The notes: a model not told the origin generated them from the sequence alone. A stretch of 61,615 nucleotides of DNA, filler included, from Jimgerdemannia flammicorona (GCA_003990765.1; 3 parts of 3 records of this genome joined end to end with filler, not necessarily neighbours in it); one strand, 5' to 3'. Numbered from the whole stretch's first letter, positions 400 to 41,048 are shown. Program-made: numbers and translations.

Positions 400-733
400 A
401 CCTATAGAAGGTACGCAGACAGCGAATCCAGTCTCCAAACAGACATACATCAGAAACACTACAGGACTATCAAGGAGAGATGTTACTACTGCAGATAGAC
501 TTTACACCCTTTATAAATGAAACCCTGCAGCCCTGATACAAGCACAATTCTCCTGGTATGATATATGAGGAATGAATCTAGCCACCTACCTGAGCATCAT
601 CAATGCTGTCAAAATTCTATTTCCAGAAGAAGAAGAAGAACTCTTGGAATTGAGCAACCAGGGTACAGATGATAAAGATGATGGAACAGGTATTGATGCA
701 GAATATGCTTATCCACACTGGAATGATGACTAA
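400..733 (+). pseudogene. Degenerate ORF directly upstream of the PPT of a gypsy-type element, unknown product
   Basis: Frame reads ...DVTTADRLYTLINETLQPLIQAQFSWYDI*GMNLATYLSIINAVKILFPEEEEELLELSNQGTDDKDDGTGIDAEYAYPHWNDD* with one internal TGA at 566. The second copy (41020-41048, minus) ends AYAYWDDD*. Confidence 0.5.
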
Positions 734-773
734 AGAATAGTCTGAGAACAGACCATCCTTTAGTAGAGACTGA

Positions 774-2136
774 TATAATACACCAAAAACATACTACCTA
801 AATTATATCTTAGCCAGATAATGTAAAAAATTAGTAACTTAGTCAGATGATGTAAATATATAGCATAGTAACCAGATACAGCAACCATTGCTGTAAAAAA
901 GTGTATAAATAGCCAGACTACTAGACAATGTATATCTGTGCAGGACCTGTACACCTGTGCTGGACATGTACACTTGTGTTGGACCTGCACAACTTCCCAT
1001 AAGTAGCAAATCTATAGTTAGCCACATAGCAATCAGATAGTAACCATAATGTATAAAATATCCCAGAGACAAGAGTGAATAAACCTCAGTCCAAATTGAA
1101 GTACAAATCAAAGAAGCCTCTAAAGATTGAGCATTTGTCTCCTTATTCTCACTTCAGTCTACTTTCTGATACAAAGCTGATTTTGCTGCTAATTTTGAGT
1201 GAAAAACTTTGCCACCTTTGGAATTATTGGTATACTTGCCAGACTAAACCTGAAGAATCTGAGTTTGCTACCCAAGTTTAAGGAAGAAATTTGCTACTAT
1301 TTCTAAGTTATCTGCATTTCCAGAAAGCCTAAGAGAAAGCTGCCTTGCTTAAGCCAGTTTCTGATGCAACTTCACAGTGAATCCATTTATACAAATGAAG
1401 CCAGTCTTTGATATAACTTTGCCAAGAGACTCTTTTCCAAAAGCTACCTGTTATATTTTCCAGTTGAAGCTGCCATTTTCAAGAAGTCTGCCAATTCAGG
1501 AGAATCTGTATTATCTGCCATTTTTGAGTTATCTGTATTCCCAGAGAACTCATACCACCTAAGTATTATTCCCAGAAAGTCTGCCAGTTCAGAAAGAATC
1601 CATGACATCCTAGTTACCCAAGTTATTTGAATTATCTATGCCATCTGAGTTATTTGTTTGTTCCAAGTGACCCAAATCAAGTTATCTTTCAGAAATCACA
1701 TACTTTTGGAAATTACTACTACCTAAGAAGGAAACCATTAAATTGACAGATTACCATATATAAGGAACCCACCATGCTACATCAGATTGTCATATAGAAA
1801 TCATATAAGGAGAACTGCTAAATTGCCAGACTGTCATATATAAGGAGATTGTCATGCTATATAGAAATCACCCACTGCTTAAGAAGAAAACTACTCATAT
1901 TACATATGAAATTCTGCCAATTCCTAGTTGATCTAAGAAGGAATGATATATAAATCACTGCTATACTCAGAGAACTATCCCAATAAGAAAATTGCTCACA
2001 GATATCCAGCTTTGACTATTATACCACTAAACACCAAGAACATTTTATTACTTTTAACAAAGTAACTGGGGGCTCAAGCCAAACTACATCAACTCCCAAC
2101 CTTATAATTTACCTCCATTGAGCCAAGTATATTACA
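774..2136 (+). mobile_element. 3' LTR of Ty3/gypsy-type element, heavily mutated copy
   Basis: Reverse-complement homolog of 39782-40982. Starts TATAATA (TGTGACA in the other copy) after PPT-like TAGTAGAGACTGA and ends ATTACA. Confidence 0.8.
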
Positions 2137-2504
2137 ATATATATAATAATTAAAATATTAATTTTAATATTTTATTAATTATAATAATAAGAACTCATTA
2201 TAACTATATATAGATAGAACTAAAGCAAAAAATTCCCAAAGCTTTAGCATCTATTAACCTTCTTGCTATCTAAAAATATATATATTATTGTCAAAGATAT
2301 ATAATTGCCTATCAGCAGAGACTTACTTTAGCTGCTACAGAATATGTAGTAAAAAAAAACATTTATATTGATATATTTCTCAAAGTATGGTTCAATCTAT
2401 TGATGTTTAGTTATAGAATAATTGTATTTTATATTATTATTTTCATATTATATATATATATTAGTTAGATAAATATATTTTATTATATATATATATAATA
2501 TTAA

Positions 2505-3780
2505 TGATTCTCTATCTGTCTTTATTGAGAGTTCTCTATCAGTAAGCCTCTATTCATAGTTCTCTGCTATTGAGCCTTTATCAATAAAAATTCAGTAGTA
2601 ATAATAGTTCTTTGCTATTAAGTCTCTATCAACTGTTCTTTGCCATTAAGCCTCCATTGATAATTCTGTATCATTGAGTCTCCATCAATGAGAATTCAGT
2701 AGTAATAATAGTTCTTTACCATGTCTCTATTGATCATTCTCTGCTATTGAGCCTCTATTAATAAGAATTTAGTAGTAATGATAGTTCTCTGCCACCAAGC
2801 CGCTATCAATAGTAATTCAGTAGTAATAATAGTTCTTTGCTACATATCAAGCCTTTATTGATCATTCTCTACCATTGAGTCTCCATTAACTATTCTTTAT
2901 TATTGAGCCTCTATCAACTATTCTCTGCCATTGAGTCTCTATCAATGAGAATTCAGCAGCAATAATAGTTCTCTATCAATGAGTCTCTATTAAAATAGAA
3001 TTTAGTAGTAATGATAGTTCTCTGCTATTGAGCCTCTATCAACCATTATCTACCATCAAGTCTTTATTAATGAGAATTCAGCAGTAATGAGTCTTTATTA
3101 ACTACTCTCTATCATTGAGCCTCTATTGACTATTCTCTACTATTGAGTCTCTATTAATGAGAATTCAGCAGTAATGACAGTTCTCTATCACTGAGCCTCT
3201 ATTAATGAGAATTTAGCAGTAATGATAGTTCTCTTTTATTGAGTCTCTATCAATAAGAATTTAGCAGTAAAGACAGTTCTCTATCATTAAGCCTTTATCA
3301 ATTATTCTCTATTATTGATCTTCTATTAACTATTCTCTACTATCAAGTCTCTATTAATGAGAATTTAGTAGTAACAAGTCTCTATTAATTATTCTCTACT
3401 ATTGAGCCTCTATCAATGAGAATTTAGCAGTAATGAGCCTCTATCAATCATTCTCTACCATTGAGTCTCTATTAATAAGAATTTAGTAGCAATAATAGTT
3501 CTGTGCCATCAAGCCTCTATTAAAGAGAATTCAGCAGTAATAACTGTTTTTTATCATCAAGCCTCTATTAATAATTCTCTACTATTGAGCCTCTATTAAC
3601 TATTCTCTGCCATCAAGCTTTTATTAATAAGAATTCAGTAGCAATGATGATTCTCTGTCATCAAGTCTTCATTGATCTTTCTCTATCATCAAGCCTATCA
3701 ATGGTTCTTTGCCAGTGAGCCTCTATTAATGAGAATTTAATAGCAATAATAAGCTTTTATTAATAAGAATTTAGATATAT
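2505..3780. repeat. Complex tandem array of about 28-, 31- and 48-bp modules
   Basis: Recurrent TGAGCCTCTATCAACTATTCTCTGCCAT and TGAGTCTCTATTAATGAGAATTCAGCAGTAATGATAGTTCTC units. Variants differ mostly by C/T and G/A, and there is almost no CpG. Confidence 0.9.
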
Positions 3781-4455
3781 CAATAGATAATTTTTTTCAA
3801 AAAAACTCTTTATAGAATTAAAGTTAGAAATAATTTAGATTATTTTATATTTTTTTAAAAAAAAATTATAATATCATTAGCAAGAAATAGAAGTCAAAAA
3901 AATAGTTAAAAAAAACATATATATATTTCAAATAATTATTACTTATTATAAATATAATAAAATTAAAAAAACAACTCTTTATAAAGTTATAGCCAGAATA
4001 TTACTCTTTTGATATATATTAATGAAAAATATATATTGTGCCATTATTATAAAGAAATAAGATCTAAAAAAAAGTGTTAAAATAGTTGAGTATAGGCGTG
4101 GAAATTGAGTTAAAATTGGAATAAACATAGTCATGTGATTAATTTTTCAGTGAATTTGATAAAAAAAATTAATTATTATATATAAATATAAGAGAGAATA
4201 ATAATAAAAACTCCCTATAGAAGTAAATTCAAGAGTGTTTTTTATTAGATTATGTTTTTTATTATTATTATATTAATTGTCTAGAAATAGAGTTTTTTTA
4301 AAAAAAAAAATGACTATAGACGTGGTGCACTATACACGACCCAACATCGCAGAGATATGTACGTCATCGCTGTCAAGTGTCTGCCTCTGACGTCATTGCA
4401 ATACGGCCAATATTTATTTTCCGACCATTCGAGCGATCTTAGATCGCATTAAACT

Positions 4456-6303
4456 ATGGCTAAGCCCATTTTTCAGGTTTTGCTAGTGATTCTCGTCTTC
4501 GAATCCCATCGGGCAACAACCTTCATTCCTATAGGTCAGTGGGCCCAGACCGCCATCCTCATCAATAGCACTGTCTATGTCTACGGTGGAGCACGCGACC
4601 TCTCCGAAATAGGTAGCAGGAGTATGTACACCCTTGATGTCTCCGTGCCCTGGACGAACAAAGACCCCGTCTGGATGGATCATTCAAGCGACAGTGGCAT
4701 TTCCTTTGCACCTCTGACTTCATACCACAACATGTGGCCATCTAACGACAGAAAATCTTTCTACGTCTGGGGTGGCGGAAGCACGATCGCAATGAATCTG
4801 AAGGAAAGCGGATTTGCCCAATACGACCTTTCCAGGAAGGCCTGGTCAATTCCGTCCGGGACCGCAGCCGTCGATGTGCCACAGCCAAGGAGGGAGACGG
4901 CCGCAGTGTTGACTTCGTTCGGGGTCGCCTACATCTGGGGTGGGGTTGGCGATTCCCTTAATGGTGAGTATAGTGGATGGAGGTCATTAAATTGAGCCAG
5001 AATTTATTAATAGACCTTTGATTCCAATTTTAGGATACACTGTCGACGACACCTTTGGGAAAACGATCTACAACGAAATGATTTCTTTTGATACCACCAA
5101 ACTTCTCTGGAGCGTTCTCAACGTCTCCGGACAAGTGCCCCTACCGAGGATTTTGCACACGACCACGATGCTCCTGTACGGCTCGATTATATATACTCAT
5201 CGTTGTTTTAACCGCCATCAGTGCACATTTATTCACATCCCATCTCTTTTCCCAGTAATAATCAAATTGTCATGATCGGCGGTCTGAACGGCACACAAAT
5301 TAATACCTCCTTTATATTACTCCAATATTCTTCCATGACTGAAATTCCTGTTTTTGAGTAGTTATATGGTTTTTCTTTCTTCTCTTTGGAAGATGGCATA
5401 TTCCCTCGTATCTGACCAATTGCCTTCTGAATTTTTGTCTTTAGTACAAATGCTGGGACATGGATTTCTAATAACGCAATGGGCGAAATACCTCGCGCGC
5501 GTCGCATGCACACCGCGGTTTTGGGTAAGAAATTTCGAAATCACAAACATATTTCACCCCTCCCCCTGTGTTGCGCTTAACGACTTGTCGTATTGCCCTC
5601 ACGCAGCTTCAGACGGCTTTTCCATTATAATCTGCTGCGGTGGAACGCAATTGGCGTCGGTCAATCTTAACGACGTTGCGGTGCTCGACACACGTACTTG
5701 GCAGTGGATGCAGCCGGTCACCAACGGAAATGCACCTGAAGGAAGGTTAGGGTTATCGTCGGTAATGATCAATGGCCAGATGCTCATCTTTTTTGGTACG
5801 CGTCACAATCACGTTCTATTTCGTTTTTCTCCTTTCCTTTTGGACCATATACGAAATTACATTTTCATTTTTTGTGCACATTGTCTGTAACAGGCAGCAA
5901 TGGTTCGTGTTTGAATGACGTTGCCATCTTGGACACAAGGACAACACCCTACCAATGGGCGAGCAGCTTCTCTCCGAACTCCAACACACCCAGCCCCACC
6001 TACAATACATCCTATCCTGCCTCAAATACACCCGGTCCGCCTTCATACAGCATCGATAGCCTCGGCGGCATCGGCGGCATCGTTGGTATTTCCATTGGGG
6101 TGATCCTCTTCTCCATCCTCATTTTTCTTCTCATCCGCAAACAATGGCAGCGACGCAGTCATCGGGAACTTCCGCAAGAACAAGATGTTCCATTCCGCGG
6201 ATCTCCGATGACGGAGCCGCAGCTAAATCAGAAACCCGACCAGAACAATCGGAAGCCTGACCAGTATAATCAGAAACCTATGTCAATAGAGATTGAAATA
6301 TAA
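4456..6303 (+). CDS. Kelch-repeat (galactose-oxidase-like beta-propeller) single-pass membrane protein, about 476 aa, 6 exons
   Basis: Exons 4456-4963, 5034-5175, 5256-5357, 5445-5524, 5607-5795 and 5894-6303 splice in frame with GT-AG (1431 nt). Signal peptide, repeated kelch blades (VYVYGG, FYVWGG, AYIWGG, IVMIGG, IICCGG, LIFFG; DT..W), S/P/T stalk, TM GGIVGISIGVILFSILIFLLI, short tail with QKPDQ repeats. Confidence 0.9.
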
Positions 6304-7162
6304 AAATTATAAATTATAATAACTTTATTACAATTTTTAAAAATCACTTTTCCATTAACATTGAATGATTTTCTCCTTTTGTTTTTGGAAGATATTAAAA
6401 AAAAAATATTAATTTTGAATTTTTTTACCAACTTTTATGACTTATATATTTATTTATTACAGTGAAATTTGAATATATATTAAATATAAAAAAAAAAAAA
6501 AACAAGATTAATTTTAGTAGTTGAAATAAATTTTTGATTTTATTTTTTTTTAATATTATTTAATAATTGAAATATAAGTTTAATTATAAATATATATATA
6601 TCTTGAATGTGATTAAGTTAGACTATGAGAGATCATGCACCGAGTTCGAATGCGAGCAGCTACGCGATTTCCTAAGCTGGATTCTCGGTTGCTGTTCCTC
6701 GACGCCTGCGCCGCGGCGGCGGGCCAGCGGTTTTGCTCACGGGTACCTCCTCGAATCGGGACACATGGGCCCTGGGCAGGAAGGCCGGCGTCACGGAGTT
6801 GCTGGAACGCGAATGGTACAGGACACGATTGGTTATGATGGCGATTTTGATTTAGAAAAGACCTGGAAAGTGTACAGACTGTACATGAAGAGGGTCCTGG
6901 TTCGAGAAGGAAGTGCAGATTGAGTTATGAAGGGGTGGTTTCGATAAAGGCGGGCGAGGCTGGTTGGAGTGGGACATTCATTTTTGTGAAGGCTGCTCTT
7001 GGTTAGGAACATTAAAATATACCTCAATTGCTTTTTATTTCACAGGATTCGTTTTTCAGGGGTGACCGTAAAATGGATTTCGTGCACTCAACATCGGATG
7101 ACCTCATTGTTAATGCAAAGTTGCGAAATCTCCGTCGATTACAATATATGATTTCAGTGACC

Positions 7163-7193
<31 letters not shown>

Positions 7194-8099
7194 CGATTCA
7201 GGATGTCATGCCATATATAGCGGCAAATCCGTACGCCAGCGTCGTTTGATTCGCCGTGATTGAGTAGCAAGTCGGTGGTGTCCTTGAATTCTTCAGCGTG
7301 GTGTCTGCATCGCGAAGCAGATTGGTAATAAGGACGCCAGCCACACAGACCGTTCATCTCGCAATAGCGCGGGCTCCGTCCTCTCGTTGTATCGTCCAAG
7401 AACGAAAAACTTTTACACAGTACGTTGTCAAGAAACGCTACATCGTCCCAATACCTCACCAAGTTACATAAACACCTCCAGTGATTCCTCGCCTGACAGG
7501 CTGACAGGTATGTAGTGTCTTTCTTCACGGGAAAAGGTCCCATACAATATTTCTTATTTTATTTTATTTTTATTCCGACACTTCAATTTGGACCGCAATT
7601 TACGATATCTTTCCTTGCCGCCAGGAGGTATAATACCAGTACGTGTGTTAAGATAATTTCTTTGTTGCCATACTGGCCTATAGCAATGGTAATGTCCGGT
7701 AAAATCGCGTTCAGTTATACGCAAAATTATTCAAGCTAAATATCGATCCTGCTTCTCCGCCTGTGGAAAAGCTTCCAGACCAACAAAGCAGTTACAGCTC
7801 CATCAGGTGAGCCCACCAAGTATGCCAAATGAGTTCCAGATAAGCCAGGCGTGCTTTTATTGGGAAGGGGGACTAGGCCGTGGCATTGATGAGAATCGAC
7901 GGTTTAATTGGCTTGGACATTGACGGTAGTGAGTTGCTCATTCAAAATCCTGACGCTAAAGTCTAGCAGAGGATGGATAGTGAGACCAAAACAGACGAGA
8001 CAATTACCGCGCACTTGCTGCAAGACCTACTTGCTTGCGTAGCAACACTCTAACAAACCAGGACATGGTGCCAAACGTAATTCTCCAAAGGTTTATTGA

Positions 8100-8990
8100 T
8101 GACATAAAATAAGGTATTGCCTCCATATTAATTAAAAAGAGAGAGAGAGAGAGAGAGAACCTTTTCAATCTACATAGTCCTCTCGCCCTAGCAGCATCAA
8201 CCATCTTAATAAAATGGCAACGGTGACATAACTTTTCCGTTCCATCCCGCTCCACTTCATCCGCCTCTTGTTCGTAAAAACGGCCCTGTGCTTGAGGAGT
8301 CGGTCATGGTCATCTTTGCGACTGTGATGGGTTTCCTCTCGTGATGTTGAGTTTATCCACTAGACTCGGTGCCGCCCAACAAACTCCGCACACGGCTGCA
8401 GACATACGCCCTGCTTCGTCACTTCACCCGTGTGCGTCGAGCCAACAGTGTGATAATTTCCCCAACAGACAACGGCAGCATATGCCATTTTTACTGGACA
8501 AGACGTGCTTGTCGGTGATACCGGCCAATCTGGGTATTGTACCGGTCGTGGTTCGAGTAGACGGCTGTGTATTCGAGATGGCGCCAATAAGCCTTTTCGA
8601 AGGTCAACTGTTCTGTGGAGTTGTGAGGAATGGCCGAATTTAGCGAGGTGTGCTCAATCTCTAATATCATATTGTCGACAACATCCCTCTTCATAAAAGG
8701 CTCCAATCCACTTCTCCCACTCTTTATAATTTTTCTTTCTTTGTCACTCACACGCTCCCCCAAATACCTACCGTTAGTGACCGTAACAATGTTATCTTGC
8801 TTGACCATCTTTAAAAGCCGTCGCTCGTCGTCTGCAAGTACAAAGTTGAGTGGAAATCTGCCAGGGTATTCAGAAATTTTGAGTCCTAAGCGACGCGCAC
8901 TTCACTCATTTCGAGCTCCCATACCTTTGCAGCTCCGCTCTTCCGGGTCGAGTCAAGGCTAGGGTGAGTCGAACAAATTGGAACGTGAAC
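8100..8990 (-). pseudogene. Frameshifted, stop-interrupted gene remnant of unknown family
   Basis: CpG-normal island with protein-like segments in changing frames (ORF 8491-8808; DRLLKHRAVFYEQEADEVERDGTEKLCHRCHFIKMVDAARARGLC). No recognisable domain. Confidence 0.35.
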
Positions 8991-9269
8991 GTAGTGCCAG
9001 GTAGACCAGTTGCATTGTGAGGTTGGCCAAAGAAGTTGGCCAAAGAGGTTCGGCATCTATGTCACGAACAAGCCAACGTGTTCTGTTTTTAGTTTTCTAG
9101 CGCATATGTGTGTAAGAAATACATGTATGAGCATTTCGTACGGTTGGAATGAGTTGTGGCGTTTTCGAACTTCTCCTCTACCTTTGTATAATATACATAT
9201 ATTCAATTCAAGCTCCCAGATACTTATGATGCTACAATAAAGTACTTTTCAACCCGGAAATGATTCAAA

Positions 9270-11330
9270 TAGAAGCATTCACGTCCTGTGAATGCCTACC
9301 TGATCTCCCCTTCCTATTATATTACTGTGAGTAATGAACAACTCTAACAACAACAACAACAGGATGCCCTGGCTGAGTGTGCTGAGTTCCTTTGACAGGT
9401 CACCAAGGCTGTCATGGTCAGCCTCTATCCTCCTCTACTAGATCCAGAGGTCACAAACCAGCAGGACCAATAATGTCTAATTGATATCCTTTTCCTTCAG
9501 TATTCCAGATATTCCAACCCTGCAGTCCTTAGACTCAAAGGAAATCCTGATGGTATAGACCTCCACAATGATGCTGACAGCAGTGGGGATGAAATCCTCA
9601 TAGTAACCAAGTCTTGAACTATTGGGAGATATTATGTATCTCTTATATTCACTGATATCATTCTACTAAAATTTATTAAGGCATACCTCATCTCTACTAG
9701 TTTCAAGAAACTCCTCTATTGAAACTCTGAATCCAAACAGGGTGTTCTCTGCACCCTCTCTATTAATGAAGTCTTCACTGATAATTTCAGCAAATCTATC
9801 AAAGAAGCAGATAAAGTTCTTGCTGATATCTAATGAGTAATCTACAATACTCTCTAATCCCTCACCATTATTCTCTAGGCCCTCAAACCTCACATCAATA
9901 GTGCTACTCTCCACTACTACAAATTGGTCTATGATACTATCATTCTGTTCTTGGTGAAAAAATTACAAAACTATCTCCAGATCAGACTTTATAAAGCAAA
10001 ATATATACAGATTTACTGCTATATCAAACTAACCAAATCTACTAAATAGTTACTAATTCTCATCTCTATCTACTATATGGTGGTCTCTGGTTCTAAGTAT
10101 GATGGAGATCTGTTTGGTACTAAATTTATCTATTGTTTTTATAATGATACCAAATATCACAAGCTTCTCCTCATAGTTAAGAAAATCTCCAAACTGTCAG
10201 ATAACATACCTCCATCCTGTAGCTCTAGTGGTCATAGCTGGGAAAATAGGTTCTGGGGTAGTCACTGCTCTAACAACTATAATTTATAATAACAGAGCTT
10301 CTAGAACTATGTATACTCTAAGTACAAATAGCTGATATAGTTCTCAATACTGAGCTCTGAATTTAGATAATAGTATGTTAACACCTGCTGCTCACTCTTG
10401 AAGAATCAATTGATCTATAATACTATTATTCTCAAGATCTCAAATATTATCTCTAAGATAGGAGCTTAGTTAGTTTAGATCTCTGAGATTATTTGAATAA
10501 CTCTGAGTATTAACTGTTGAATCATCAATATGGTCTATAGAAAGAACTATATTGAATAATTATAAATCTCAACCCTTTTCTAAATAGAACTCAGATTCTT
10601 TTATGAGAGAAGTATATCAGTAATAGAGAAGGTTCTAATAGATACTACCATTGTTGAGTTTTAGTATAAGAAGACCATATACTCATATAGAACAGAGATC
10701 AGCACTTATTTTTCAATATCTTTGCAATTCTTCAGATTGATAAGAATCAAATCTATCTTAATATATATCTATTTACTGAATGAGTTTGTAAGGTAATTAT
10801 ACTTCAAGATAGAAGATATTCAGATTTAATACTATATATTCTAGTCTAACAACTATCTCATTAAGATCAATATAAAGAATATCTATTTTTATATTTTCTT
10901 ATACTTAGATGATTAATAATTTCTTATCTTTCAATAATAGAAAATTAATTACAAATTCTATAATATGCTTTTTGACCTATCATCTGCTCTACATATTTAG
11001 ATAAAGATATTAATAGTAGTTCTGAAGTCTTTTTAAGTAAAGAGTATCTAGCTCACCTATTAAATTAATGATATATATCTCTCAGTCTCTATGAGAGATA
11101 ATATGCTCTAATATAGAGGGATTGTTTGCAACTATCTAAAGATATTAGGTTTTCTTCTACATATTATATCTACTTAATAAAGAAAGTATGTCTCTTTGCT
11201 GAATATACATATCTCTAAAATAGAAATATACATGCTAATTTTCTAAGCTATATCTATACTAGTCCAGATAAGTGATAACTCAACCCAATACTATTCTGAT
11301 ATTTTCTCTATTAGGGCTCTATATATATAT
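9270..11330. mobile_element. Highly mutated TE remnant, class uncertain
   Basis: Abrupt loss of CpG from about 9290, TpA-rich, stop-riddled, adjoining other TEs. No diagnostic motif confidently read. Confidence 0.45.
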
Positions 11331-11924
11331 TATAATATAGCAGATATATAACTAGAGAAATGTAGCAAATTTCTATAACTCTTCTTGACTTCTCAGAGTT
11401 ATAAGTAGTATCTGTCTGATCTCATTATCAGACTACTAGAGTGAGGCTCAAACTCTTTTGATCTGAGGTTTATTCACTCTAGATATTAGAGATATTTATA
11501 CAAGCTTATTAGCTATAAGGTGGCTCAGTTATAACTATATTTCCTATAGATTATTCTTTACAAGTATTAATTCTTAACATCCATTAAATCTTTAACATCT
11601 GTAAATACTTTAATATCTGTTTAAGTTTCTGTATTTGTGAAATATGACTGCTATTTATAAGGCTATACTATAGTAAATCAGGAAATCAGATTTATGTACT
11701 ATGATTAAATGTCTATTTTCTGTTTTGATTCCATACTATATATCATATCTTTCTCCTGAATAGGTTATTTTTTATGTAAAAATACCTATTCAAATTTCTA
11801 CATCTCAATGTTTATATATTTATTTCCTCTATATAGACATATTTATGATATATCCAAGCAATTGTCAGAATATTTTTCAAGGTTCCAAAAAAGTCTTCAA
11901 ATAATTAATTTGAGTAGTAGTATA

Positions 11925-12170
11925 CATATTATCAAAAGTCAGATGATAGTATCTTCAAAAATCAATAATATTCTTCAAATAATTAACTCAAGCATAGTTT
12001 ATATATTATATATCAAAAGTTAGATAATGATAGTTTATATCTTCAAAAGTCAGATGGTGGCAAATTATATATCATAGAATAGCTTTCAGACTCATCAAGT
12101 ACAGTAACAGTTCATATATTATCAAAAGTCAGATGACAATAGTTTGTATATCATTAAAAGTTAAATAATG
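11925..12170. repeat. Degenerate tandem repeats ATCAAAAGTCAGATGATAGT inside the TRIM-like element
   Basis: The motif recurs about five times. Confidence 0.65.
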
Positions 12171-12174
12171 ATAG

Positions 12175-24569: not shown

Positions 24570-24786
24570 TCGCGTGACGTTCACATCATTACACATCACT
24601 ACGCCGTGGCAAAGAAAATGTCTATGCACATGAAGTTTGTCCGTTCGCATGACCTTCACATCACCACATTACTACATCATGGCAAGGAAAACGCCTACGC
24701 ACACGTACAGCTATGGCTATCATGTACAGACGGACATTCGTGAGAGCTGCTCTGGACCCCAACGGTCCCCTTTCCCTGTTTCCTAG
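24570..24786 (+). mobile_element. Candidate Helitron 3' terminus
   Basis: Hairpin GGACC-CCAAC-GGTCC (24754-24768), then 14 nt, then CTAG (24783-24786) followed by T. Preceded by an imperfect direct repeat (about 24575-24710). Confidence 0.45.
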
Positions 24787-24927
24787 TGCAATATATAGAT
24801 TAAGGGGCTTAACTCAAATATCCATTCATGCAATCCATGCATGCATGTAGGTCGCTGCCAAGGTGACTCGTTTGGGTGATTTTTATTTATGATTGCAGGG
24901 TTTTAATGCAAAAAGTTTTCATTTTCT

Positions 24928-24967
<40 letters not shown>

Positions 24968-25737: not shown

Positions 25738-25820
25738 ATAATATTTCAAATTAGACCTATAATATTTCAAATTAGACCTATAATATTTCAAATTAGACCT
25801 ATAATATTTCAAATTAGATC
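25738..25820. repeat. 21-bp tandem repeat x4 in a hAT intron
   Basis: TATAATATTTCAAATTAGACC units. Confidence 0.85.
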
Positions 25821-27089: not shown

Positions 27090-27355
27090 TGTTTTTTGAA
27101 AACCTGACCTTTATCAAAAACCCAATCTTTTTTTGAAAATTTGACCTTTTCAAAAACCCAACCTTTTTCAAAAATCTGAACCTTTTTCAAAAACCCAACT
27201 TTTTCAAAAAAAACCCAACCTTTTTCAAAAAAAATCTTAATCTTTTTTGAAAACCCAACCTTTTGATCTTTTTTTAAAACCTGACCTTTTTGAAAACCCA
27301 ACTTTTTTTAAAAATCCAACTTTTTTGAAAACTTGACCTTTTCAAAACCTCTTTT
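27090..27355. repeat. About 18-bp minisatellite within the hAT
   Basis: TTTTTCAAAAACCCAACC-like units, more than 12 copies. Confidence 0.85.
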
Positions 27356-30840: not shown

Positions 30841-33800
30841 TTTTTTATTTTTTTATTTTTTATAGTTACTTAGACTCCTTCCTTTATTAATACACTATCT
30901 ATTCTTTATATAATACACTGTATCCACCCCTACCTGATCCTCTTAGGCCCCCACCCCTTCTTGATAAAAGACCACTTTGTCATTTACCATTGCCACCTGC
31001 CTGCCACTCTGTTCACAGATCCCTTCCACCAAATGGTGATATTGCCTACCCTGGGGACCCCAACCAACCCACCACTCAGTCAGCAAATCTCCCATCAACC
31101 CCTCCCATCTTAACAACTTCTCTTGTGTGTCTGTCTGCTGTCTCTCCTCAAAGACAAAGAGCCAATGTCTAGCCAGCCCTACCTATACAGCTAGAACCCA
31201 CCCAACAGTAAGCTATCTATTGCCCACACTATCCACTAACCAGGATTTCAAACCCTCCCAACGACCTCTCTCTCTATCCAGCCTTCTCTCCACACCCATC
31301 AGGTCCCCTACCACTATCCAAAAGTTCCCCAGAACCTCACACTCTCCCAGCCAATGTTCTGGCATCTGCACAAATCCCCCAACTTATCCTACATTATATC
31401 ACTCCTCACAATCTAATCATCCACCATCCACCTATGGAAATTCAACATGACATTCCTCCACAGCATCCACCACTATACTACCCAGAACTTTGGAGAAAGC
31501 CACCTCCACACCTTAGCACTCTATGACCAGATTCCTACTCAGTCCCACTCTTCACCAATCCTCACTGCCTACTAACTACTTGGCCAAATATCCTGACCAA
31601 GTCCCCACTGATACTCCACTCCTTCACCAATATCAAATTCAGCAAGCAGAACTCCCCCCAGGAGTAGTCTGCCCCATTGCCACATAGCTGGACCCCACAG
31701 CATCTCCCTCTCATTACTTCACCAGCATAGGTCAATTCAGTATACTCTATCTACCACCCCCCACCAGAAGCTCTTATACTATAGCCACCAGCTTTCATTC
31801 AGACCCACCAGAGATAGCAAATCTCCCAATGATTCTTGTGGGGAGAATCTCATCTCTTACACCTTCTGCATCAGCAGTACTCAACCCCCACCCTATAGTT
31901 CAACAGTCCTTTTCAACCACCAAGCTTGCAGGCAGTACAGCCTCTTAGGAAAATCCACTAGGCCTAGCCCTCCCCTAACCACCAGCATTACAAGAGTGTC
32001 CCAACTGATCTGGGACTACCTCTTTGCCCAAATCCAAACCCTAGCCAGTTTCATCAGTCTCTTTACCACCCAAGCTGGAAAGTCTAAGTAATAAGCAACA
32101 TACCATAGCATGGGAAATCAGTAGACATTCAGAATTGATACCCAGCTCACTAGAGAGATGTGGTGACCTCCCCAACCTCTAAGAGCCTCCCCCCAGATTT
32201 CCACCCTCCTCTGCCACTATACCTGTAGCAAGATAGATCCATATATAGAAAGGAAGATGATCAGATACTACACCACTTCTTCTGTAAGGACATTTGTTCC
32301 AATGACATCCCCTCCCACTAGCCCATTCTCCAGCACTATTGTCTCACACTTATGCCAGTTGAGCTTTACCCCAGAATACACCTTATACCATTCCACAGTC
32401 TCCTTAAGTACCTCAACATCCACCACTGAGCCAAGTCCAACTACCATATCATCTGCAAAGGCCCCCACCTTCTATACCACACCATACACAGAGAGCCCTG
32501 CCACCTTTTGCCATATCCTATCCATCAAAGGTTCTAACAAAAGGGTGTAGAGGATAGGAGACAATGGATCTCCCTGAGGAACTCCTCTCCCCAAGGAGAA
32601 TGCTAGACTCTGGTAACTATTACACATCAGAGCTGCCCTACTTCCCTCTAACAGATTCAATATAGAAGCTTGAAATCATGGGGGAACACCAATTCTATCC
32701 AGCACCTTGGCCAGCCACACCTGCCAAATGTGGTCATAGGTCTTCTCCTGGTCCAAAAAGACCAGTCTTCCATCTAATCCACAAGGCTGTACTCCTTCAA
32801 TAATGCCATGAACTCAGGCAGTCACATCCCTGATAAGTCTGCCTTCAACAAAGACCTGCTGCTCCTCATCCAGCACCTGTTGGGCAACCCTCTATAGCCT
32901 TGTAACAATCACTTTGGTCACTATCTTTCTGTCTATATCCAGAAGCATGATTGGTCTCCAGTTCTTCCAGTCCTCTCTCCTCTCATTGTCTTTGTATAAC
33001 AAGGCTACCAACCCCAAGTCCTGCTCACCAACTCACTTGCCATTCAGAAGAACATAGTCACAGAGAGCTGCTATCTCTCCTATCACTCCAGGTATCTTCA
33101 CCATCTTCTTCCAAAAGTCCCAAGATAACCCATCCTCTCCTAGTACCATCCCAAGCTTAGTTGTGGCAAGGACATTCTGGATCTCCTTCTCTTGAACTGA
33201 TAGGACCAAGGTACCAAGGCCCTCAACTTGTGGCAGATCTCAATCCTCTAGTATATTGCCAATTGCCTCCTTATTCCCACCCCCTTTCTTCTCACTCCAC
33301 AGACCCCTCCACCTCTCCTTCAGTACCCCCAAGATCTGTTGTGTGCTATGCACTATTTCCCCCTCTGCATCAAGGACTCCATCCCATCAATGCCACACCC
33401 TCCTGGCCTGGAGGAGTCTTGACAAGTACCTAGTAGGCTTCTCCCCCTCCTCAAGTCCCTGCCACCTCAGCCTGGCTGCCATTTCTCTCATATGCATCTC
33501 CTTCTCCTCTCACAACACCTGTTGTAGCTCCATAACCGCCAATTTAGCACATGTCAACCTCCAATTATCAACCTCACCAGAATTCAACAAATCTGCCCAT
33601 TCTATCTACAATCTAACCAACCAACTGGAAGCACACCTCACCCTTTTCCTTCTCTGCTTCCCTGCCTCTCTACCAGCTTCTCCCTAGTAAGCCTGTGCAG
33701 CCTCTTTTAAATTTATCCAATAGACACCAACTGGTAAATCCTTGCATACCAATCTGGTAATCTTCAATTGGATGTCCTTCATCCATGGGTCCTGCAAAAC

Positions 33801-36692
33801 CTTCTCAGCCAGAGAGGAGTTAAGGTGCTAATGTTCAGATCCATCTCCACTTTCCCAAAACTGCCTCCACCCCAAGAGACCCCAATGATCAGACCATGGA
33901 CACCACTCTACCTCCAGAGTCTTTCAAACATCAATTCCCCAGCACTCAGCTATCAGGATCCAGTCAATCTTTGTACCCAGTTCATTCACCCAGTGTATAT
34001 AAATCCTCCTGTCTCTCTACCCTATCCTATCCATACATATCCCCCAGAGAGCTAAGGTTCTCCACCTCCTCCCACTTGTCCAGGCCACCACTCCTACCAC
34101 CAGCACTCTTCCCTCCATCAGTCCTATCCAACTAAATATCATGCACCATATTAAAGTCTCCTCCCAGAATATCAACTCCCTCCTCCATAAGAGAGCCCTC
34201 TTTCAAAAGACTGTTAATCCATGCAATCCTCTTACCCCTAACTGCTGGGCAGTAGCAAGACCCAACCTTCACTGGCACCCACCCAGATCTATGCTATTTC
34301 CCCCACACCAAATGGTCTCCCCAGCTTCTTATTCCACCCAGGTCCTCTTTACCACTCTATGTCAAAATTGCCACTCTGCGAATCCAAGCTGCAGTTTCTC
34401 CCCATTCTCTAGTCCATGCTGCCTGATCCTCATCCTCCTTATATCGAACATCCTGCAGCAGAAAAATATCAGCCTCCAAACCCTTAAGCCAATTAAAAAT
34501 ATTCCTATATCACCCAGATCCCCATAGTCTATTCATATTTAGAGAGAAAATGTTTATTGTACTGTTTATATGAAATAATGTTTTTTAGAAGAAATATTAT
34601 ATCTATCCTCTACAAATCCATATGCCTCTTCTCTCATGTCAAGTCCAAGTTATATTCAGCAGCCAAAGCCTCCTCTTCAACCTTCTTTGCCTTCAATTCC
34701 ACTAGAAGTTCAGCTATCTCCCCATCCTCCTTTTTCTTGAAGTCCTTGTAGTACTCTAGGCAGGCCTCTTATCAGAGCCTCAGTCCATGCTGCTCTGCTT
34801 AACAGAAGGCAGCCTGCTTACTCGCAACCACTGCCAGCTCTGTCTCCCTCTCCTTATCAACCTCATACCCTTCTTTCTCCAGCAGAATCACAAGCATCTC
34901 TACCTTCAGTGCCTCTACAACCCCATTACCCTGTAAGATCTATGCCCAATGCTCCTCACTCATCACTTGTAGGTCCACTTCTCCCAACTCTTCAGCTGTA
35001 AAGTTATTCATCATCTGGTATAGCCACAGTAGGTTCCCCACCTCCTTCTCCTCTGGAGTCACAGGCCTTCCAGTATCTAGCATTGTGGTATCAGCTCCTA
35101 CACTTACAGTTTCATCTCACTCCTTCTCTGTCACATCTGCTAGCTCATTCTCACCAACTGCCACCACCTGTCCTCCTTTTGCCAGATCTGGAACTCCAGA
35201 ATGCACCCACTGGGCTCTGTGCATCAGTACATCCTCTGCCACCTGGATCCTCACAGCAGAGCTATGCCTGACAATAGGGGGGTGTAATTGAGGTCCTGTT
35301 CCCAGACTTTGAATATACCATCCACATAAGAGTCACTGTGCAGTGGCTTCCCTATCCCATTCTGACCCTCCTTAACCTCCCCACCCCCCTCACTGGTTCA
35401 GACACTTACCTCAGTGCCCTCTGACTTCTCAATACCTTCTGTATTCTTCTTCCCTCATTCTTCTATGCTTGCTAACAACTTTCTCTGCCCTGAGTCCTCT
35501 CTCACTGCCTCTTGTCTGTGCAGATACATTTCTCATCCACAATCTCCAAATGTATCAAGTCTACATATATCTGCTAGACCTTAGCTCTCCTCTCAACTGC
35601 TCCACTCTTTTCTTCCAGAGCCTCCAACAGATCCTCCTCCTCTTCTTTACTCTCCTTCACCCTCAATATCTTACAGATGAAAGCCTCATATAGCATGACT
35701 AAAGGCCAGTCACTTGCCTTCCCAGTGGTCTCTTTCTCAGCCAGCTGAATCTGGATATCCACATCTCTAGTCCTGAAATTGGTTCCCTCCCACATCTGAA
35801 ATCCAATATTCACCATATTACCATACTCTACCATCACCTCCTCAACCCTCCTCCTGGTCTCCACAGTCAGCACCCCCTTCACCAGCAGCTGAACCACTCT
35901 GGAGTCCCACCTCAAGCACTACACCATAGGTACCACCACCTCTCCTACAGCCACTCCAGTCTTCAGTACCTCCTCCAGTGGTCCTGCTTTCTCAAAACCC
36001 ACCTCCACTCCCTCTAATCCCTTCAGGAACTTCATGGAGGCAGCACTCACCACCTGCTTCAAAGGATCATCCTCACCATCACTGCCAGGCCCTGGAAGCA
36101 CAAGGTTGCCACAAACTCTGAAATTGACTTCTTGAGTAATAGTACCACCACCAGCCCCATCACACTATCTGTCAGATCCCCCTTCCTCTTTGGGCCCATC
36201 TGTCCAGCCTCTCCATCAGCTATCATATCTGGATTTTTGCCAGATCCCTAGTTACACCACCATCAGCAGTCTCCCCCTTACTCTCAGCTACTATACCACT
36301 AGCCCTTCCCCCTACCAGCTGAGGTCCAGCACCTCTCACTCCTCCTTCTTCTGCTTTTCCTTCCCCTCCATCTGTCTGCTACAAGAACCAACAGGCCATC
36401 CACTATTCCTCAATATATCTGCAAAGCTCTTTTCCTGCTGCCCTCCTACTCCTCCTCCAGTACTGCTACCACTGCCTGAACTGTCTTACCCACCTAGACC
36501 ACTGAAAGACCCCATCTCCAATCTATGTTCACATCTAACATATTGTCAGTCAAAGGCTCCAGATCCACCCAACCTAGTACATATGTCAGCTTGCTTGTTT
36601 TTTGCCATTGTCTTAGTACCTTTCTCCAATAAATACTTGAAAGTGAGTTGTGAAAGTATGTGTAATATGAGTGATAATTGGGAAAGGTGATG
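30841..36692 (-). mobile_element. Full-length L1/Tx1-clade LINE (about 5.85 kb), inactivated
   Basis: Poly-A tail at 30841-30860. TSD GAACTAATACT(GT/AC)CTT at 30825-30840 and 36693-36708. ORF2 APE motifs (GGDFN, IFLLQD) and RT motifs (GVPQGDPLSPILY, AFADD); ORF1 upstream; many stops. Confidence 0.92.
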
Positions 36693-37046
36693 GAACTAAT
36701 ACTACCTTTATTTCAAATGAAAACCTAGGGGGTATTTATATAGGTTGGTTCATGATTTTTGACTAAGTATGAGTGACTAATTTGATAACTATAGATGAGG
36801 TTTATGATTGTAATCTTTGTGATCAGGTGGTTTGTGATCAGGAATATCTTTGTGATTAAGACCTTTATTGTTGGGCAATAATCAGTTACAGTAGTATTTG
36901 CTGTGATACTAATTGCTAGAGATAAGCTAGACATCATTTATTGTATTATTTACATCATTTGTATCTTATTCATTACATTTATTATATTCATTGTATATTA
37001 TATTCAATGGTGACATCATCAATAGGTCATGTGATCATTCATTACA
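36693..37046 (-). mobile_element. Remainder of the LTR split by the LINE
   Basis: Continues from the TSD. Minus-strand TATA box TATATAAATACCCC at about 36727-36741; candidate TGTAAT start at 37046. Confidence 0.5.
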
Positions 37047-37219
37047 TCTTGTCTATTTATTCTTTTATAGGTATTCTGATAAGATATATAGACTCTGGGA
37101 TCTATGCAAGTAGCATATAGTTATTTTGCATGATATATAATTTAGAGAAAAAAGAAGTCAAGAATTTCATGTGATTATACTAGTTAATATCTCTATATCT
37201 ATATTTTAGTCAGTATAAA

Positions 37220-37778
37220 TAGTGCTCCGAATGAGTCAATCCAGATCAACTCAGATGGGATTCGAATCCCATCGAGATGGATTGAATCAACCATTGTTTT
37301 GATTTCCAAATTAGACAATTAAATGTTTATATCAATAACTCAATGAATAATCATCAAAATTTGATGATCGTGGTGTCATTTGAAAGCCCTTAATAAGGCC
37401 TTTCTAATGAGACCAAGAACATTAAAATCAGATTACGCATTACCAAGATATTAAGGAAAACTTTCTATTTGACAAAATTTCCAAAATTGGCAAATCAAAG
37501 AATTTCCAAAATCGGCAATTCAGATGGCTTCCTTCATAACTCAGCAACACATGATCTGATTTCAATGTTCTTGATATCATTAGATAGGCCTTATTAAGGG
37601 CTTTTAAATGACACTAAGATTATCAAATCTGGATGATTATTCATTGAGTTAATGATGTAAACATTTAATTGTCTAATTTGGAAATCAAAACAATGGTTGA
37701 TTCAAATCCATCCAGATGGGATTCAATCCGAATCAATCTGAATCCAATCCAGATTAAATTGACTTGTTAGGAGCACTA
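37220..37778. mobile_element. Foldback MITE of the hAT superfamily (559 bp)
   Basis: Termini TAGTGCTCC...GGAGCACTA, perfect 8-bp TSD AGTATAAA (37212-37219, 37779-37786), inverted arms of about 220 bp. Confidence 0.92.
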
Positions 37779-37789
37779 AGTATAAATAT

Positions 37790-39720
37790 AGCAACCAAAG
37801 TAACTGTCTCCAATCTCTCCAGCAGTTTATCAAAATTATTTTCAACCACTATATATATCTGAGCCAGAGTTATCTAAGCTAAGAATAATGGAGATCAAAG
37901 ATATAAACAAACTCTCCAATGATGAGAGATCCTCTATAAAGAATAAGTAAAAATATTCCAACATTCACTAAGAAACTTATTCTGATTTAGAAAGTTATTA
38001 AGATATACTAGCAAGTCCTAGATAGTAATGACAGAACTATGTGAGCTATACTGAAGTATATAAATATATAAATATTATAATATCTAATGAGCCAAACATA
38101 TATAATGAAGTCATGTAATCTCTAGATAGCAAAAAATGGAAATATAATAAATGAGAAATATGATTTACTTATTGAGACTAATATATGAGATCTTGTACTC
38201 TTTCTGCCAAATTGCTAAATAATTGGATTAAAGTGAGTCTATAGAATCAAGCATAATGCTGACAGAAGTATAGAGTAATATATATAAAGCTTATTTTGTT
38301 GCTAAGGAAAATTACAGAATTATAGTATAGATTACAATGAGATATTTTCACCAGTATTCAAGCTTACTTTGCTTAGAATACTCCTTACAATTAGTGCACT
38401 ATATAATCTGGTAATCTATCAAATAAATATCAAGACAGCATTTCTGAATAGTGATATAGATACTAAACTATATACAAAGATATAAACTCTATAATGATGA
38501 TAAGAACAAGCTCATATATACACTATATAAGAGATTATATAGTATCAAACAAGCAGTATGATTATGAAATAAAAGGATTGATAAACATCTTCTTAATAAT
38601 GAATTCATATGTTGCAAAGCAGATAATTACATATATATTCAAAACTATATCAATAGTGTAGTATTCATCAGTATTTGGGTTGATAATATAATTATTATTA
38701 CTAGTAAGAACAGATATAACAGAGTTAAAGAAGCCCTATACTAATAAATCAAGATGTCAGATATAGGTAATATATTCTTTCTTTTGGGGATATCTATTAT
38801 ATATAACAGAAATACATGTGCCATATATCTCTTATAAGTAATATATACTTAAATAATCCTCAAATATTTCAATATGAATAAATATAAACTCATTGGCACT
38901 CCTATGGATATTTCTATAAAGTTAAGAAAGCCAGATACTACTTCTGAGGATGATAATGATATGCTAACCAAGAATAGTCCCAAAGATATATCTTATTGGT
39001 AAGTGATCTGTTCTCTTATATATCTTATATTAGGAATAAGACCCAACATATCATATACTCTAAATAAAGTAATATAATATTTCTTCTGCTATAATAATTC
39101 ACATTAGAACACTATCAAGAGAATATTCAGATAACTTAAGGATATAGCATACTATATACTCATATTGAGTGATAATATCAGATTAAGTAGGAGCAATGAT
39201 AAGAGAAATAATATCTGACTATCTAGTATATATAACACTGATTAGGTAGATAATCTTGACAATAGCTGATCTATAACTAGATATCTATTCCACATTGGTA
39301 AAAGGTCTGTCATCTTGTAGCAGATGTTCAAGCAGAGTTTCATGATAACACTATTAATATAAGTAGAGTACTAGATATTATCAATGACAATAAAAGAAAT
39401 CATATAGCTCTATAAACTATTAAAAGATCTCAGCTTCACTCAAAAGAACCCTATCTGATCAAGCAAGATAATCAATTGATACATAATAGCATTTGTCAAG
39501 AACTCAGTACATTATAGTAGAATAAAACATATTGATATATAATATTATTTAATATAGAAATATATAGAAAATAGTACTATATACTTAGAATATATTTCTA
39601 TAAAGTACATAATTACCAATTTACTTACAAAAGAACTTCTAAGACCAAAGTTTAAGCTATATATAAAAGAAATTGGTCTTACAAGTAATATGCCAGTATT
39701 CAGATAATTTGGAGATACTA
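37790..39720 (+). mobile_element. Ty1/copia pol remnant (RT and RNase H), extremely mutated
   Basis: IGLK*VYRIKHNAD, YKAYFVAK, IDYNEIFSPV, QINIKTAFLNSD, WVDN, KHIDI motifs in order. Confidence 0.85.
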
Positions 39721-39781
39721 TTAGAGATATTTTTTCAGACTACAAAAAGCTTCTCTTACTATATTACATTTGCATATATAT

Positions 39782-41048
39782 TGTAATGTGCTGGCTCAAT
39801 GGAGGCAAATTACAAGGTTGGGGGTTGATGTAGTTTGGCTTGAGCCCCCAGTTACTTTGTTAAAAGCAACAAAATGTTCTTGGTATTTAGCGGTATAATA
39901 GTCAAGATTTGGATACTGTGCGAGTGGTTTCCTTTTTGGGACAGGTTCTTGGGTGTAGCGGCGATTTGTGTGTGAATGGACTTCCTTCTTAGGTCAACTG
40001 GGAATGGCAGAATTTGTGTAGCGCGATGATCTCCAAAAGTATGCGATTTCTGGGTGTGACGGTCTGGCAATTTAGCGGTTCTCCTTCTTGGGTGACGATC
40101 TCTGATTTCTGCATGACGATCTTGTATAGCGCAATGATCTCCGTGTAGCGCAGCAGGTTCCTTATGCGGATGTTCTGATAATTTGGTGGATAACTCGATT
40201 TGGCTTACTGGGAATCATATGGTATGGATTCTTCTATAGCAGGCTCACTGGGAACAATGGATAACTCGGATGGTGTGGATTCTTCCTGAATCGGCTTCAA
40301 CTGGGAATACTATTCAGATGACGAAGATTCTTCCTGAATCGGCGGGCTTCTAACTGGGAAACGGCGGTGAAGTTCTTTCTTGAACTTGGGCGGCAAACTT
40401 CAGGCTTATCTGGCAAGCAAACCAATAGTTCCAAAGGCGACAAAGTTCTTCCTCAAACTTGGCGGCAAATCTTCAAGCTTTGTATCAGAAAGTGGACCGG
40501 AGTGGAAGAGAAGAGAACCAAGCTCACAACTTCTTGGCAGTGGCTCGTTGGCAGACATATCTCCTAAGTGTTGCAATCCTTCCTGGATCAAGTGGCTTTT
40601 GGCAGGCGTTTCTCCTAAGTGTACCAGACAATTGACTTTTGCTTTGGTTTGTATTCAACTTTCGGACTGAGGTTTTTATTCACTCTCGCCTCTGGGGTAA
40701 TTTATACAAGTTGGTTGCTATCTGGTTACTATCTGGCTAACTATAGATCTGCTACTTATGGCAGGTGTACAGAGTCTGTATGGTGTACAGGACCTGTACA
40801 GTGTACAGAGTCTGTATGGTGTACAGAGTCTGTATAGGTAAACAGACCCTTTCTGGTATGTCTGGCTATTTATACAGTTTTACACAGCAAGAGTTGCTGG
40901 TTACTAAGCTGAGTGTTCACGTCATCTTGTTCGCATCATCTGGTTAAGATATGATTCGGGTGGTATGTCTTGGCTTGTCACATCAGCCCCCACTGAAGAG
41001 TAGTCTGTCTCAGACTATTCTTCAGTCATCATCCCAATAAGCATAGGC
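39782..41048 (-). mobile_element. 3' LTR (39782-40982), PPT and last internal bases of a Ty3/gypsy-type element, lightly mutated copy
   Basis: Minus strand GTGGGGGCTGA then TGTGACA...ATTACA. Homolog of 700-2136 with many CpGs retained. Confidence 0.85.

Follow-up and report, generated by a model that had tools for sequence, protein, structure and literature searches.

Repeat-Restricted Cytosine Decay beyond CpG in Three Contigs of the Endogonales Fungus Jimgerdemannia flammicorona

Compartments of the Analysed Stretch

The DNA considered here, called the window below, is a stretch of 61,615 bases that holds three contigs of Jimgerdemannia flammicorona (1-20476, 20577-41048, and 41149-61615), and all sequence evidence was drawn from these 61 kb. 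The window is divided into gene blocks, in which CpG is kept, and repeat-rich blocks, in which C-to-T decay depends on the base that follows the cytosine. The ranking CpG >> CpA >= CpC >> CpT was seen in duplicate pairs, in a pair of long terminal repeats (LTRs), and in a tandem array. On the repeat side of this alternation, GC is 14-31% in some blocks and 38-50% in the transposon blocks; the gene blocks have 44-56% GC.

The loss of CpG is by far the strongest signal in the repeats. The window contains 1432 CpG, and almost none of them lie within 424-4096, 9283-20476, 25216-39890, and 40958-49427. The observed/expected ratio of CpG is 0.00-0.14 in 1-kb windows that fall wholly within repeat blocks and about 0.9-1.27 in gene blocks, so that the genes near the repeats are indeed spared, as a first-pass annotation of this DNA had stated. 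Such a bimodal distribution, with repeats near 0 and genes near 1, is expected for the decay of transposons driven by 5-methylcytosine (5mC). The compartments are as follows.

424 to 4096, no strand: CpG-less domain 1, with a single CpG, at 2801
9283 to 20476, no strand: CpG-less domain 2, with 5 CpG in 11.2 kb
25216 to 39890, no strand: CpG-less domain 3, with few CpG, mostly clustered at 37227-37730
41149 to 49427, no strand: CpG-less domain 4, on contig 3, from CpG positions and observed/expected ratios
4100 to 9280, no strand: gene block, spared, containing a Kelch-repeat gene (CpG observed/expected 0.97-1.24)
20577 to 25215, no strand: gene block, CpG observed/expected 0.90-1.22, spared
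49428 to 61615, no strand: gene block including the open reading frame (ORF) at 56166-57983, CpG observed/expected 0.8-1.27

The contigs are separated by spacers at 20477-20576 and 41049-41148, which consist of N runs around TTAATTAATTAA and have stops in all frames. Because the three contigs were joined artificially, distances and “inverted repeats” that reach across a spacer have no physical meaning. The span 700-41048, which had been annotated as a single region, crosses the first spacer and hence covers two contigs. Repeat families are shared among the contigs.

On contig 3, the ORF at 56166-57983 has 99% identity to a protein recorded at NCBI under Jimgerdemannia flammicorona and 47% identity to a protein of Endogone sp. 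On the basis of the former match, the host can be placed among the Endogonales (Mucoromycota), and it is not a Pezizomycotina ascomycete. Against a protein atlas, the same ORF gave weak fungal clusters only (at most 0.87). Of the sampled words of 51000-58000, fractions of 0.45 and 0.31 recur in two sequencing runs, and no RNA run is listed as containing them. Exon-sized ORF queries from contigs 1 and 2 returned zero protein matches in a search limited to proteins of similar length. Among 114 stop-to-stop ORFs compared with Pfam, the matches were to Kelch, reverse-transcriptase, and endonuclease families only, plus two weak apolipoprotein-like matches far below the cut-offs.

Context of the Decay in Duplicates and a Tandem Array

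The clearest view of the decay comes from duplicated sequences on contig 1, three pairs of which lie in one AT-rich block, and from an array of short units.

11345 to 11745, plus strand: duplicate X, which pairs with 17458-17951 (398 columns, 41 transitions, 7 transversions)
12165 to 12409, plus strand: duplicate D5, which pairs with 12798-13042 (245 columns, 19 transitions, 3 transversions)
12444 to 12807, plus strand: duplicate Y, which pairs with 17019-17364 (346 columns, 40 transitions, 3 transversions)
17019 to 17951, plus strand: the partners of Y (17019-17364) and of X (17458-17951), from self-comparison
2532 to 3732, plus strand: array of 28-nt units in tandem (28 scored), varying between C and T in the CpA and CpC columns and nearly fixed at CpT

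The pairs are 83-91% identical, and their 989 aligned columns hold 100 transitions vs 13 transversions. Transitions thus dominate the differences between repeat copies, which is a feature of canonical repeat-induced point mutation (RIP); this dominance is weaker in the LTR pair described below (110 vs 42). Doubles of TG and CA, which mark an ancestral CpG, number only 7, and the other 86 transitions fall at CpA (65), CpT (13), and CpC (8). When differing cytosines are set against conserved ones, the counts are 65 vs 72 for CpA, 8 vs 18 for CpC, and 10 vs 111 for CpT. The share that differs is therefore 65/137 at CpA (47%) and 8/26 at CpC (31%), but 10/121 at CpT (8%), and the contrast between CpA and CpT is highly significant (Fisher p = 1e-12). 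The claim that C-to-T change reaches beyond CpG is borne out by these pairs, which also display the preference for CpA>TpA that characterizes canonical RIP and DIM-2-type mutation. If all changes are assumed to be C>T, the loss per copy amounts to 0.31 at CpA, 0.18 at CpC, and 0.043 at CpT, with 0.0066 transversions per site. Outside CpG, the ratio of transitions to transversions (Ts/Tv) is 5-11.

The tandem array repeats this order within its 28 units. The two CpA columns have C/T counts of 16/12 and 11/17 and the CpC column 18/10, vs 25/2, 20/5, 26/2, and 24/4 in the four CpT columns.

The next base also matters. Trinucleotide counts, given as differing/conserved, are 26/21 for CAT, 10/6 for CAC, 14/22 for CAA, and 8/20 for CAG; among the CpT sites, they are 0/21 for CTG, 5/31 for CTA, 1/17 for CTC, and 1/25 for CTT. 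The low counts at CAG and CTG indicate that CHG sites (H being any base but G) are spared. The 3' neighbour is decisive, since T-C-A is variable and T-C-T is fixed, and this dependence points to the specificity of a methyltransferase or of a RIP-type process. Deaminases of the AID/APOBEC type read the 5' neighbour.

Both copies of each pair were hit equally (21/19, 21/20, and 8/11). Strand-coordinated mutation tracts are a feature of canonical RIP. Strand-polarised tracts of C>T or G>A were found in none of the 8 series analysed, in which the two kinds of change follow each other in random order (8 runs tests, all P > 0.26), though repeated rounds of mutation would obscure tracts of this kind.

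A further copy of duplicate X lies on contig 3, in the AT-rich tract at 48700-49400. An attempt to polarise X by this third copy (48708-48835) failed, as the third copy proved to be the most decayed, with 13% GC. Within it, at 48728-48813, 11/11 transitions run from C/G to T/A. The stretch of 4 kb between the duplicated flanks, at 12801-17302, is rich in purines on its plus strand, with 38% GC and hardly any CpG. When its plus strand was read through stops against Pfam, 0 families were matched. The stretch is possibly an element that is non-autonomous or very old.

Composition of the AT-Rich Blocks

The same preference can be read from base composition when CpT/ApG is taken as an internal reference. 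The CpA/CpT ratio is 0.38-0.92 in 7/7 AT-rich blocks, with a pooled value of 0.69. Elsewhere, it is 0.89-0.96 in the long interspersed nuclear elements (LINEs), 0.96 in LTR copy A, 1.08 in LTR copy B, and 1.12-1.26 in the gene blocks.

As a proxy for unique non-coding DNA, 26 low-GC windows with normal CpG were taken from the gene blocks. In this admittedly small control (30.7% GC), CpA/CpT is 1.30 vs 0.69 in the AT-rich blocks (27.6% GC; p = 4e-11), and TpA/TpT is 0.60 vs 1.16 (p = 2e-27). Equal non-CpG C-to-T decay in repeats and in unique intergenic DNA, which had been named as an outcome that would undo the first-pass annotation, was thus not what the comparison gave. Across the 19.7 kb of AT-rich blocks, the observed/expected values are 0.01-0.09 for CGN, 0.71 for CAC, 0.72 for CAT, 1.06 for CAA, 1.66 for CAG/CTG, and 2.05 for CTC.

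The segment 49001-50000 had been considered as AT-rich unique DNA with normal CpG and was rejected, because in finer windows it proved to be a mix, part CpG-less tract and part edge of a gene. Tracts of 9-14% GC with no CpG are present at 48700-49400, at the edge of a gene block, and at 6401-6600, inside one.

The LTR Pair

Two related sequences, which are plausibly LTRs by their structure, lie in the repeats of contigs 1 and 2.

600 to 773, plus strand: end of an ORF (stop at 731-733) and a purine-rich tract just 5' of LTR copy A, common to the contig 2 copy
774 to 2136, plus strand: LTR copy A, decayed, 35% GC, zero CpG
39782 to 40982, minus strand: LTR copy B, younger, 44.6% GC, 34 CpG kept; it extends to the end of contig 2

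Both copies follow the ORF end and the purine-rich tract, begin with TG, and finish with CA. They are not the two ends of one element, since they are situated on different contigs. The copies were compared by global alignment of 700-2170 (plus strand) with the reverse complement of 39750-41048, and the alignment begins at 704 opposite 41045. Every example string given in the first-pass annotation is present in it.

Over all 1100 aligned columns, the changes from B to A include 55 C>T and 44 G>A (99 in total), vs 13 T>C and 17 A>G (30 in total) in the opposite direction (binomial p = 8e-10), together with 67 transversions. Mostly one-directional transitions had been reported for this pair, and these numbers agree. 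With B as the source, change was found at 23/41 CpG, 42/134 CpA, 20/99 CpC, and 11/120 CpT, which likewise accords with the statement that CpG, CpA, and some CpC are all affected. Counted as differing vs conserved cytosines, the values are 51 vs 89 for CpA, 23 vs 56 for CpC, and 13 vs 103 for CpT. In the 846 well-aligned columns, 21/21 CpG of B are altered in A, to CA (10), TG (7), TA (3), or CT (1); replacement of CpG by TpG or CpA is a mark of 5mC decay. Copy B also gives an order of events: many of its CpG survive (34) while about 9% of its CpA appear lost, from which CpG is taken to decay several-fold faster than CpA.

The exact 38-nt LTR motif had 0 matches in the metagenome contigs searched.

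The LINEs

The remaining identified transposons are two LINEs on the minus strand.

30950 to 36700, minus strand: LINE1, degraded, 47.5% GC, 5 CpG, many in-frame stops
43000 to 48650, minus strand: LINE2, with endonuclease (PF03372) and reverse transcriptase (PF00078), 50% GC, 23 CpG

The annotated decay of transposons of every class was not confirmed, as what was identified comprises two LINEs, the LTR pair, the unclassified duplicates, and the tandem array, with no DNA transposon. The proteins of LINE1 and LINE2 are 45-50% identical. Both elements have lost CpG, yet their GC content stays at 47-50%. A metagenomic LINE relative (L001:1-4471; 54% GC, CpG observed/expected 0.5) has 67% protein identity to LINE2; it is a less decayed relative and a useful outgroup. 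Its 93 CpG are mostly TG or CA in LINE1 and LINE2. In a three-way parsimony analysis of LINE1, LINE2, and L001, the rate of C>T/G>A change was 18-25% in LINE1/LINE2 vs 11% in L001.

Short LINE-like matches to the LINE2 protein were found outside the main copies, at 41665-41928 and 45-386 (minus strand), with 45% and 34% identity. The sense strands of the LINEs are rich in G (about 34%, with C about 13%; GC skew 0.4-0.5). This skew looks like a trait of the clade rather than local damage, because L001-L004 and L006 share it (0.34-0.46).

Further Features of the Blocks

A GC-rich repeat with a 114-nt period (up to 222 nt) lies at 23611-24065, in a gene block and within minus-strand ORFs, and its CpG are fully kept. 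Repetitiveness is therefore not sufficient for decay inside a gene block. In domain 3, the segments 37282-37458 and 37529-37705 form an inverted repeat with 177-nt arms that are 88% complementary and 70 nt apart, with a motif like a tRNA T-arm at the outer ends. It contains most of the few CpG of this otherwise CpG-less domain and, for this reason, may be a younger insertion, either a foldback or an element resembling a miniature inverted-repeat transposable element or a short interspersed nuclear element. In the same domain, a perfect 21-nt tandem repeat (25738-25818; 3.9 copies, 100% match) lies inside an AT-rich CpG-less block and, by its perfect match, looks like a recent duplication that has so far gathered no mutations.

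Methylation and Deamination as the Favoured Explanation

The best reading of these data, held with middling confidence, is that cytosines in CG and CAH contexts underwent methylation of the heterochromatin type and then deamination. The repeat-rich parts would be cytosine-methylated heterochromatin, now or formerly for a long time, with methylation on CpG, at a lower level on CAH (CHH-type) and partly on CpC, and hardly on CpT or CHG. Methylcytosine would deaminate to thymine, and the repeats would lose all CpG to TpG and CpA first and then, slowly, CpA to TpA. They would thereby drift from about 45-50% GC to 14-31% GC, and the unmethylated genes would stay intact. The decay would have been slow, cumulative, and not triggered by homology.

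Published work provides both the contexts and a candidate enzyme. In Phycomyces blakesleeanus, transposons are reported to carry 5mC in CG and CHH but not in CHG, and the genome encodes DIM2 and DNMT1 (PMC11258239). Under DIM2, PMC9963178 (Dataset S1) has the J. flammicorona AD002 protein 471264, which is 1187 aa long and contains BAH and C5-methyltransferase domains; its DNMT1 entries include an Endogone protein, and the same paper describes DIM-2-like homologues in Endogonales. The likely writer would be this DIM-2-like methyltransferase of J. flammicorona, possibly with a DNMT1. Taken together, methylation as in Phycomyces and the DIM-2-like enzyme of J. flammicorona explain the data, and no new genome-defence system is needed; the first-pass annotation had pointed to a poorly described one. 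Its other argument, that passive deamination of methylated CpG is insufficient alone, holds in view of the C-to-T change at CpA and CpC in the duplicates, the array, and the composition. For a pattern that goes beyond CpG in this way, transposon-directed CG and CAH methylation with subsequent deamination is considered the most economical mechanism, its chances being judged about even.

Several observations weigh against this explanation. Methylation as the cause of the decay is read from sequence alone, and the taxon was confirmed on contig 3 only. The low-GC control comprises only 2.6 kb and may be under constraint. In the three-way LINE analysis, which is blurred by coding selection, saturation, and the use of parsimony at about 33% divergence, no preference for CpA was found in LINE1 (CpA 39/220, CpC 58/292, CpT 33/180) or in LINE2 (CpA 37/229, CpC 43/259, CpT 56/216). 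No J. flammicorona row was found under DNMT1 in parts 229-231 of PMC9963178 Dataset S1, the start of that list lying outside these parts. Finally, a 7-fold excess of CpA over CpT suits an active mutational process no less than passive decay, since Neurospora DIM-2 methylates all contexts and mutates mainly CpA.

Alternative Explanations

The last point leads to the strongest alternative, a RIP-like process. Homology would serve to recognise the repeats, probably in the zygospore ahead of meiosis, and a DIM-2-like enzyme acting through a heterochromatin pathway would actively mutate them from C to T. Such a process would be akin to RIP's RID-independent branch in Neurospora, and ordinary loss of methylated CpG would be added to it. 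Such a process is possible, although it is rated clearly below methylation and deamination. The CpA and CpT shares of the duplicates (65/137 vs 10/121) are as reported for DIM-2-mediated RIP, in which the preference for CpA is very strong and for which the enzyme, which methylates all dinucleotide contexts, can act in Neurospora (bioRxiv 10.1101/115501). A gene of the DIM-2-like kind is listed for J. flammicorona (PMC9963178, Dataset S1), and a RIP-index signal has been suggested in the non-Dikarya Zoophthora radicans, of the Entomophthorales (PMC10515909). The linked duplicates, 5-6 kb apart, with their 100 transitions vs 13 transversions and equally hit copies, also suit it. So do the LINE stops: among 67 in-frame stops, 29 align to the Trp codon TGG and 11 to Gln, the classic nonsense changes of RIP, and 3 to CGA.

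The composition and the fate of the LINEs are harder to reconcile with RIP. Thresholds for the RIP indices are a high TpA/ApT, a value of (CpA+TpG)/(ApC+GpT) below about 1, and a composite index above 0. The composite index is positive in only 5/62 one-kb windows, and the substrate index (CpA+TpG)/(ApC+GpT) is 1.1-2.0 in repeat blocks, so the window lacks the canonical composition. Long LINEs keep 47-50% GC and a CpA/CpT of 0.89-0.96; in a published table, LINEs make up 62 Mb of the 231-Mb J. flammicorona genome. CpG was lost ahead of CpA in the younger LTR copy B, and strand-polarised runs are absent. With the positive index so rare, GC retained in the LINEs, no strand tracts, and LTR transversions as asymmetric as the transitions (see below), the description of the decay as RIP-like hypermutation could not be upheld.

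Leptosphaeria maculans, which we take to be the genome labelled Lepmacul in one of the published screens, is a known RIP genome. That screen, a kingdom-wide k-mer survey of 2025, limits RIP-like signatures to Ascomycota and gives the J. flammicorona genome as no_rip (n_noncoding 23, n_repeat 0, n_both 0; PMC12543289, Table S14). As the entry Lepmacul (45/0/0) is also no_rip in that table, the screen may lack power where repeats dominate the non-coding DNA. A repeat-identity table of the same paper appears, from its rows rather than its column headers, to hold very many 95-100% identical repeats for J. flammicorona (PMC12543289), which also speaks against RIP. Elsewhere, RID-1 is described as exclusive to Pezizomycotina (PMC9963178), RID as lost in sister clades of arbuscular mycorrhizal fungi within Mucoromycota (PMC8298701), and RIP signatures as undetected in Mucoromycotina (PMC8647823, with Venice et al. 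2020 as its source).

An explanation without any non-CpG targeting is less probable still. CpG methylation would be accompanied by AT-biased neutral mutation, and LTR copy A would simply be older than copy B. The LTR pair fits this. Within the 846 well-aligned columns, its Ts/Tv is 2.6 (110:42), large indels are abundant, and transversions (14:4) share the asymmetry toward AT that transitions have (86:24; Fisher p = 1.0). Moreover, TpA in B stands opposite CpA/TpG in A at 12/56 sites, which per site nearly matches the forward class (35/123). Such a picture would be expected of an older copy that drifts toward low GC, and the pair alone is weak evidence for hypermutation because of its low Ts/Tv and equally asymmetric transversions. 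The lack of a CpA preference in the LINE lineages can be added, as can the enrichment of AT-rich k-mers in all non-coding DNA of J. flammicorona, e.g., TATA 4.0-fold (PMC12543289, supplement). However, a process blind to context cannot produce an excess of CpA over CpT of 5- to 10-fold in three independent repeat families (p = 1e-12, 3e-6). It also cannot explain why, across 19.7 kb, CAY (Y being C or T) is depleted while CAG/CTG and CTH are retained, and it agrees neither with the Ts/Tv of 5-11 outside CpG in the duplicates nor with the low-GC gene-block windows, in which CpA/CpT and TpA/TpT (1.30 and 0.60) depart from the values of the AT-rich blocks (0.69 and 1.16) at a similar GC content (30.7% vs 27.6%). 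Neutral drift with loss of methylated CpG alone is therefore unlikely.

The editing of retroelement cDNA or RNA by an AID/APOBEC-type deaminase, which the strong G-rich skew of the LINE sense strands might suggest, was rejected as extremely improbable, because the preference is set by the 3' neighbour with TCA and TCT sites behaving oppositely, the LTR pair has C>T and G>A in balance (55 vs 44), the tandem array, which does not retrotranspose, has the same pattern, and the skew is a family trait common to relatives L001-L004 and L006.

Significance

The alignments reveal a 3'-neighbour-dependent signature in Endogonales repeats that composition indices miss. In the literature search, no paper was found that describes such repeat decay for Endogonales. 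If the signature is genome-wide, it would link a DIM-2-like methyltransferase of an early-diverging lineage to the permanent mutational inactivation of transposons, and the origin of RIP would become testable. If it reflects only passive decay after methylation, an ordinary process would have been found in a lineage in which it was not previously described. A bolder and more doubtful idea is that a heterochromatin-linked, DIM-2-type branch of RIP predates Dikarya, in that a DIM-2-like enzyme of an Endogonales fungus without RID mutates repeats from C to T, preferring CpA (CAY), on top of the loss of methylated CpG. If this tentative view is true, the RID-dependent RIP of ascomycetes is a later specialisation of an ancestral defence by methylation and mutation.

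Comparison with Known Systems

Canonical RIP of Pezizomycotina shares with the window a transition-only decay of duplicates, nonsense changes from TGG and CAG/CAA, and the alternation of AT-rich blocks with GC-balanced gene blocks. Unlike in canonical RIP, the substrate index is not depleted here, CpG is lost faster than CpA, and strand tracts are absent; in addition, RID is reported only in Pezizomycotina (PMC9963178). Zoophthora radicans offers another case of a suggested RIP-like composition outside Dikarya (PMC10515909). Its signal rests on the composite index alone; in the window, where this index is negative, only alignments and CpT-referenced composition bring the signal out.

Transposon-restricted depletion of CpG beside genes with normal CpG is also known from Basidiomycota, the transposons of which show CpG hypermutability associated with methylation (PMC3318451, PMC4352252), and from Rhizophagus irregularis, the transposons of which have bimodal CG methylation (PMC8647823). 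In the published descriptions, these patterns centre on CpG (or TCG), whereas J. flammicorona has an additional CpA/CpC component.

The DIM-2 branch of RIP in Neurospora crassa is similar in its C-to-T mutation of repeats with a strong preference for CpA (10.1101/115501). It relies on a DNMT1-like DIM-2 enzyme, of a kind listed for J. flammicorona (PMC9963178), and does not need RID. It differs in that, here, CpG is the most depleted dinucleotide, CpC is also hit, the RIP indices are negative, and high-copy LINEs are not AT-rich.

Phycomyces blakesleeanus belongs to the same subphylum, and its repeats are likewise targeted while its genes are spared (PMC11258239). That work measured methylation and not mutation, and neither a mutational decay nor the sub-context within CHH is described in the parts of it considered here. 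The methylation contexts of Phycomyces match the mutational contexts of the window, namely CG and CAH over CAG, with CTG untouched.

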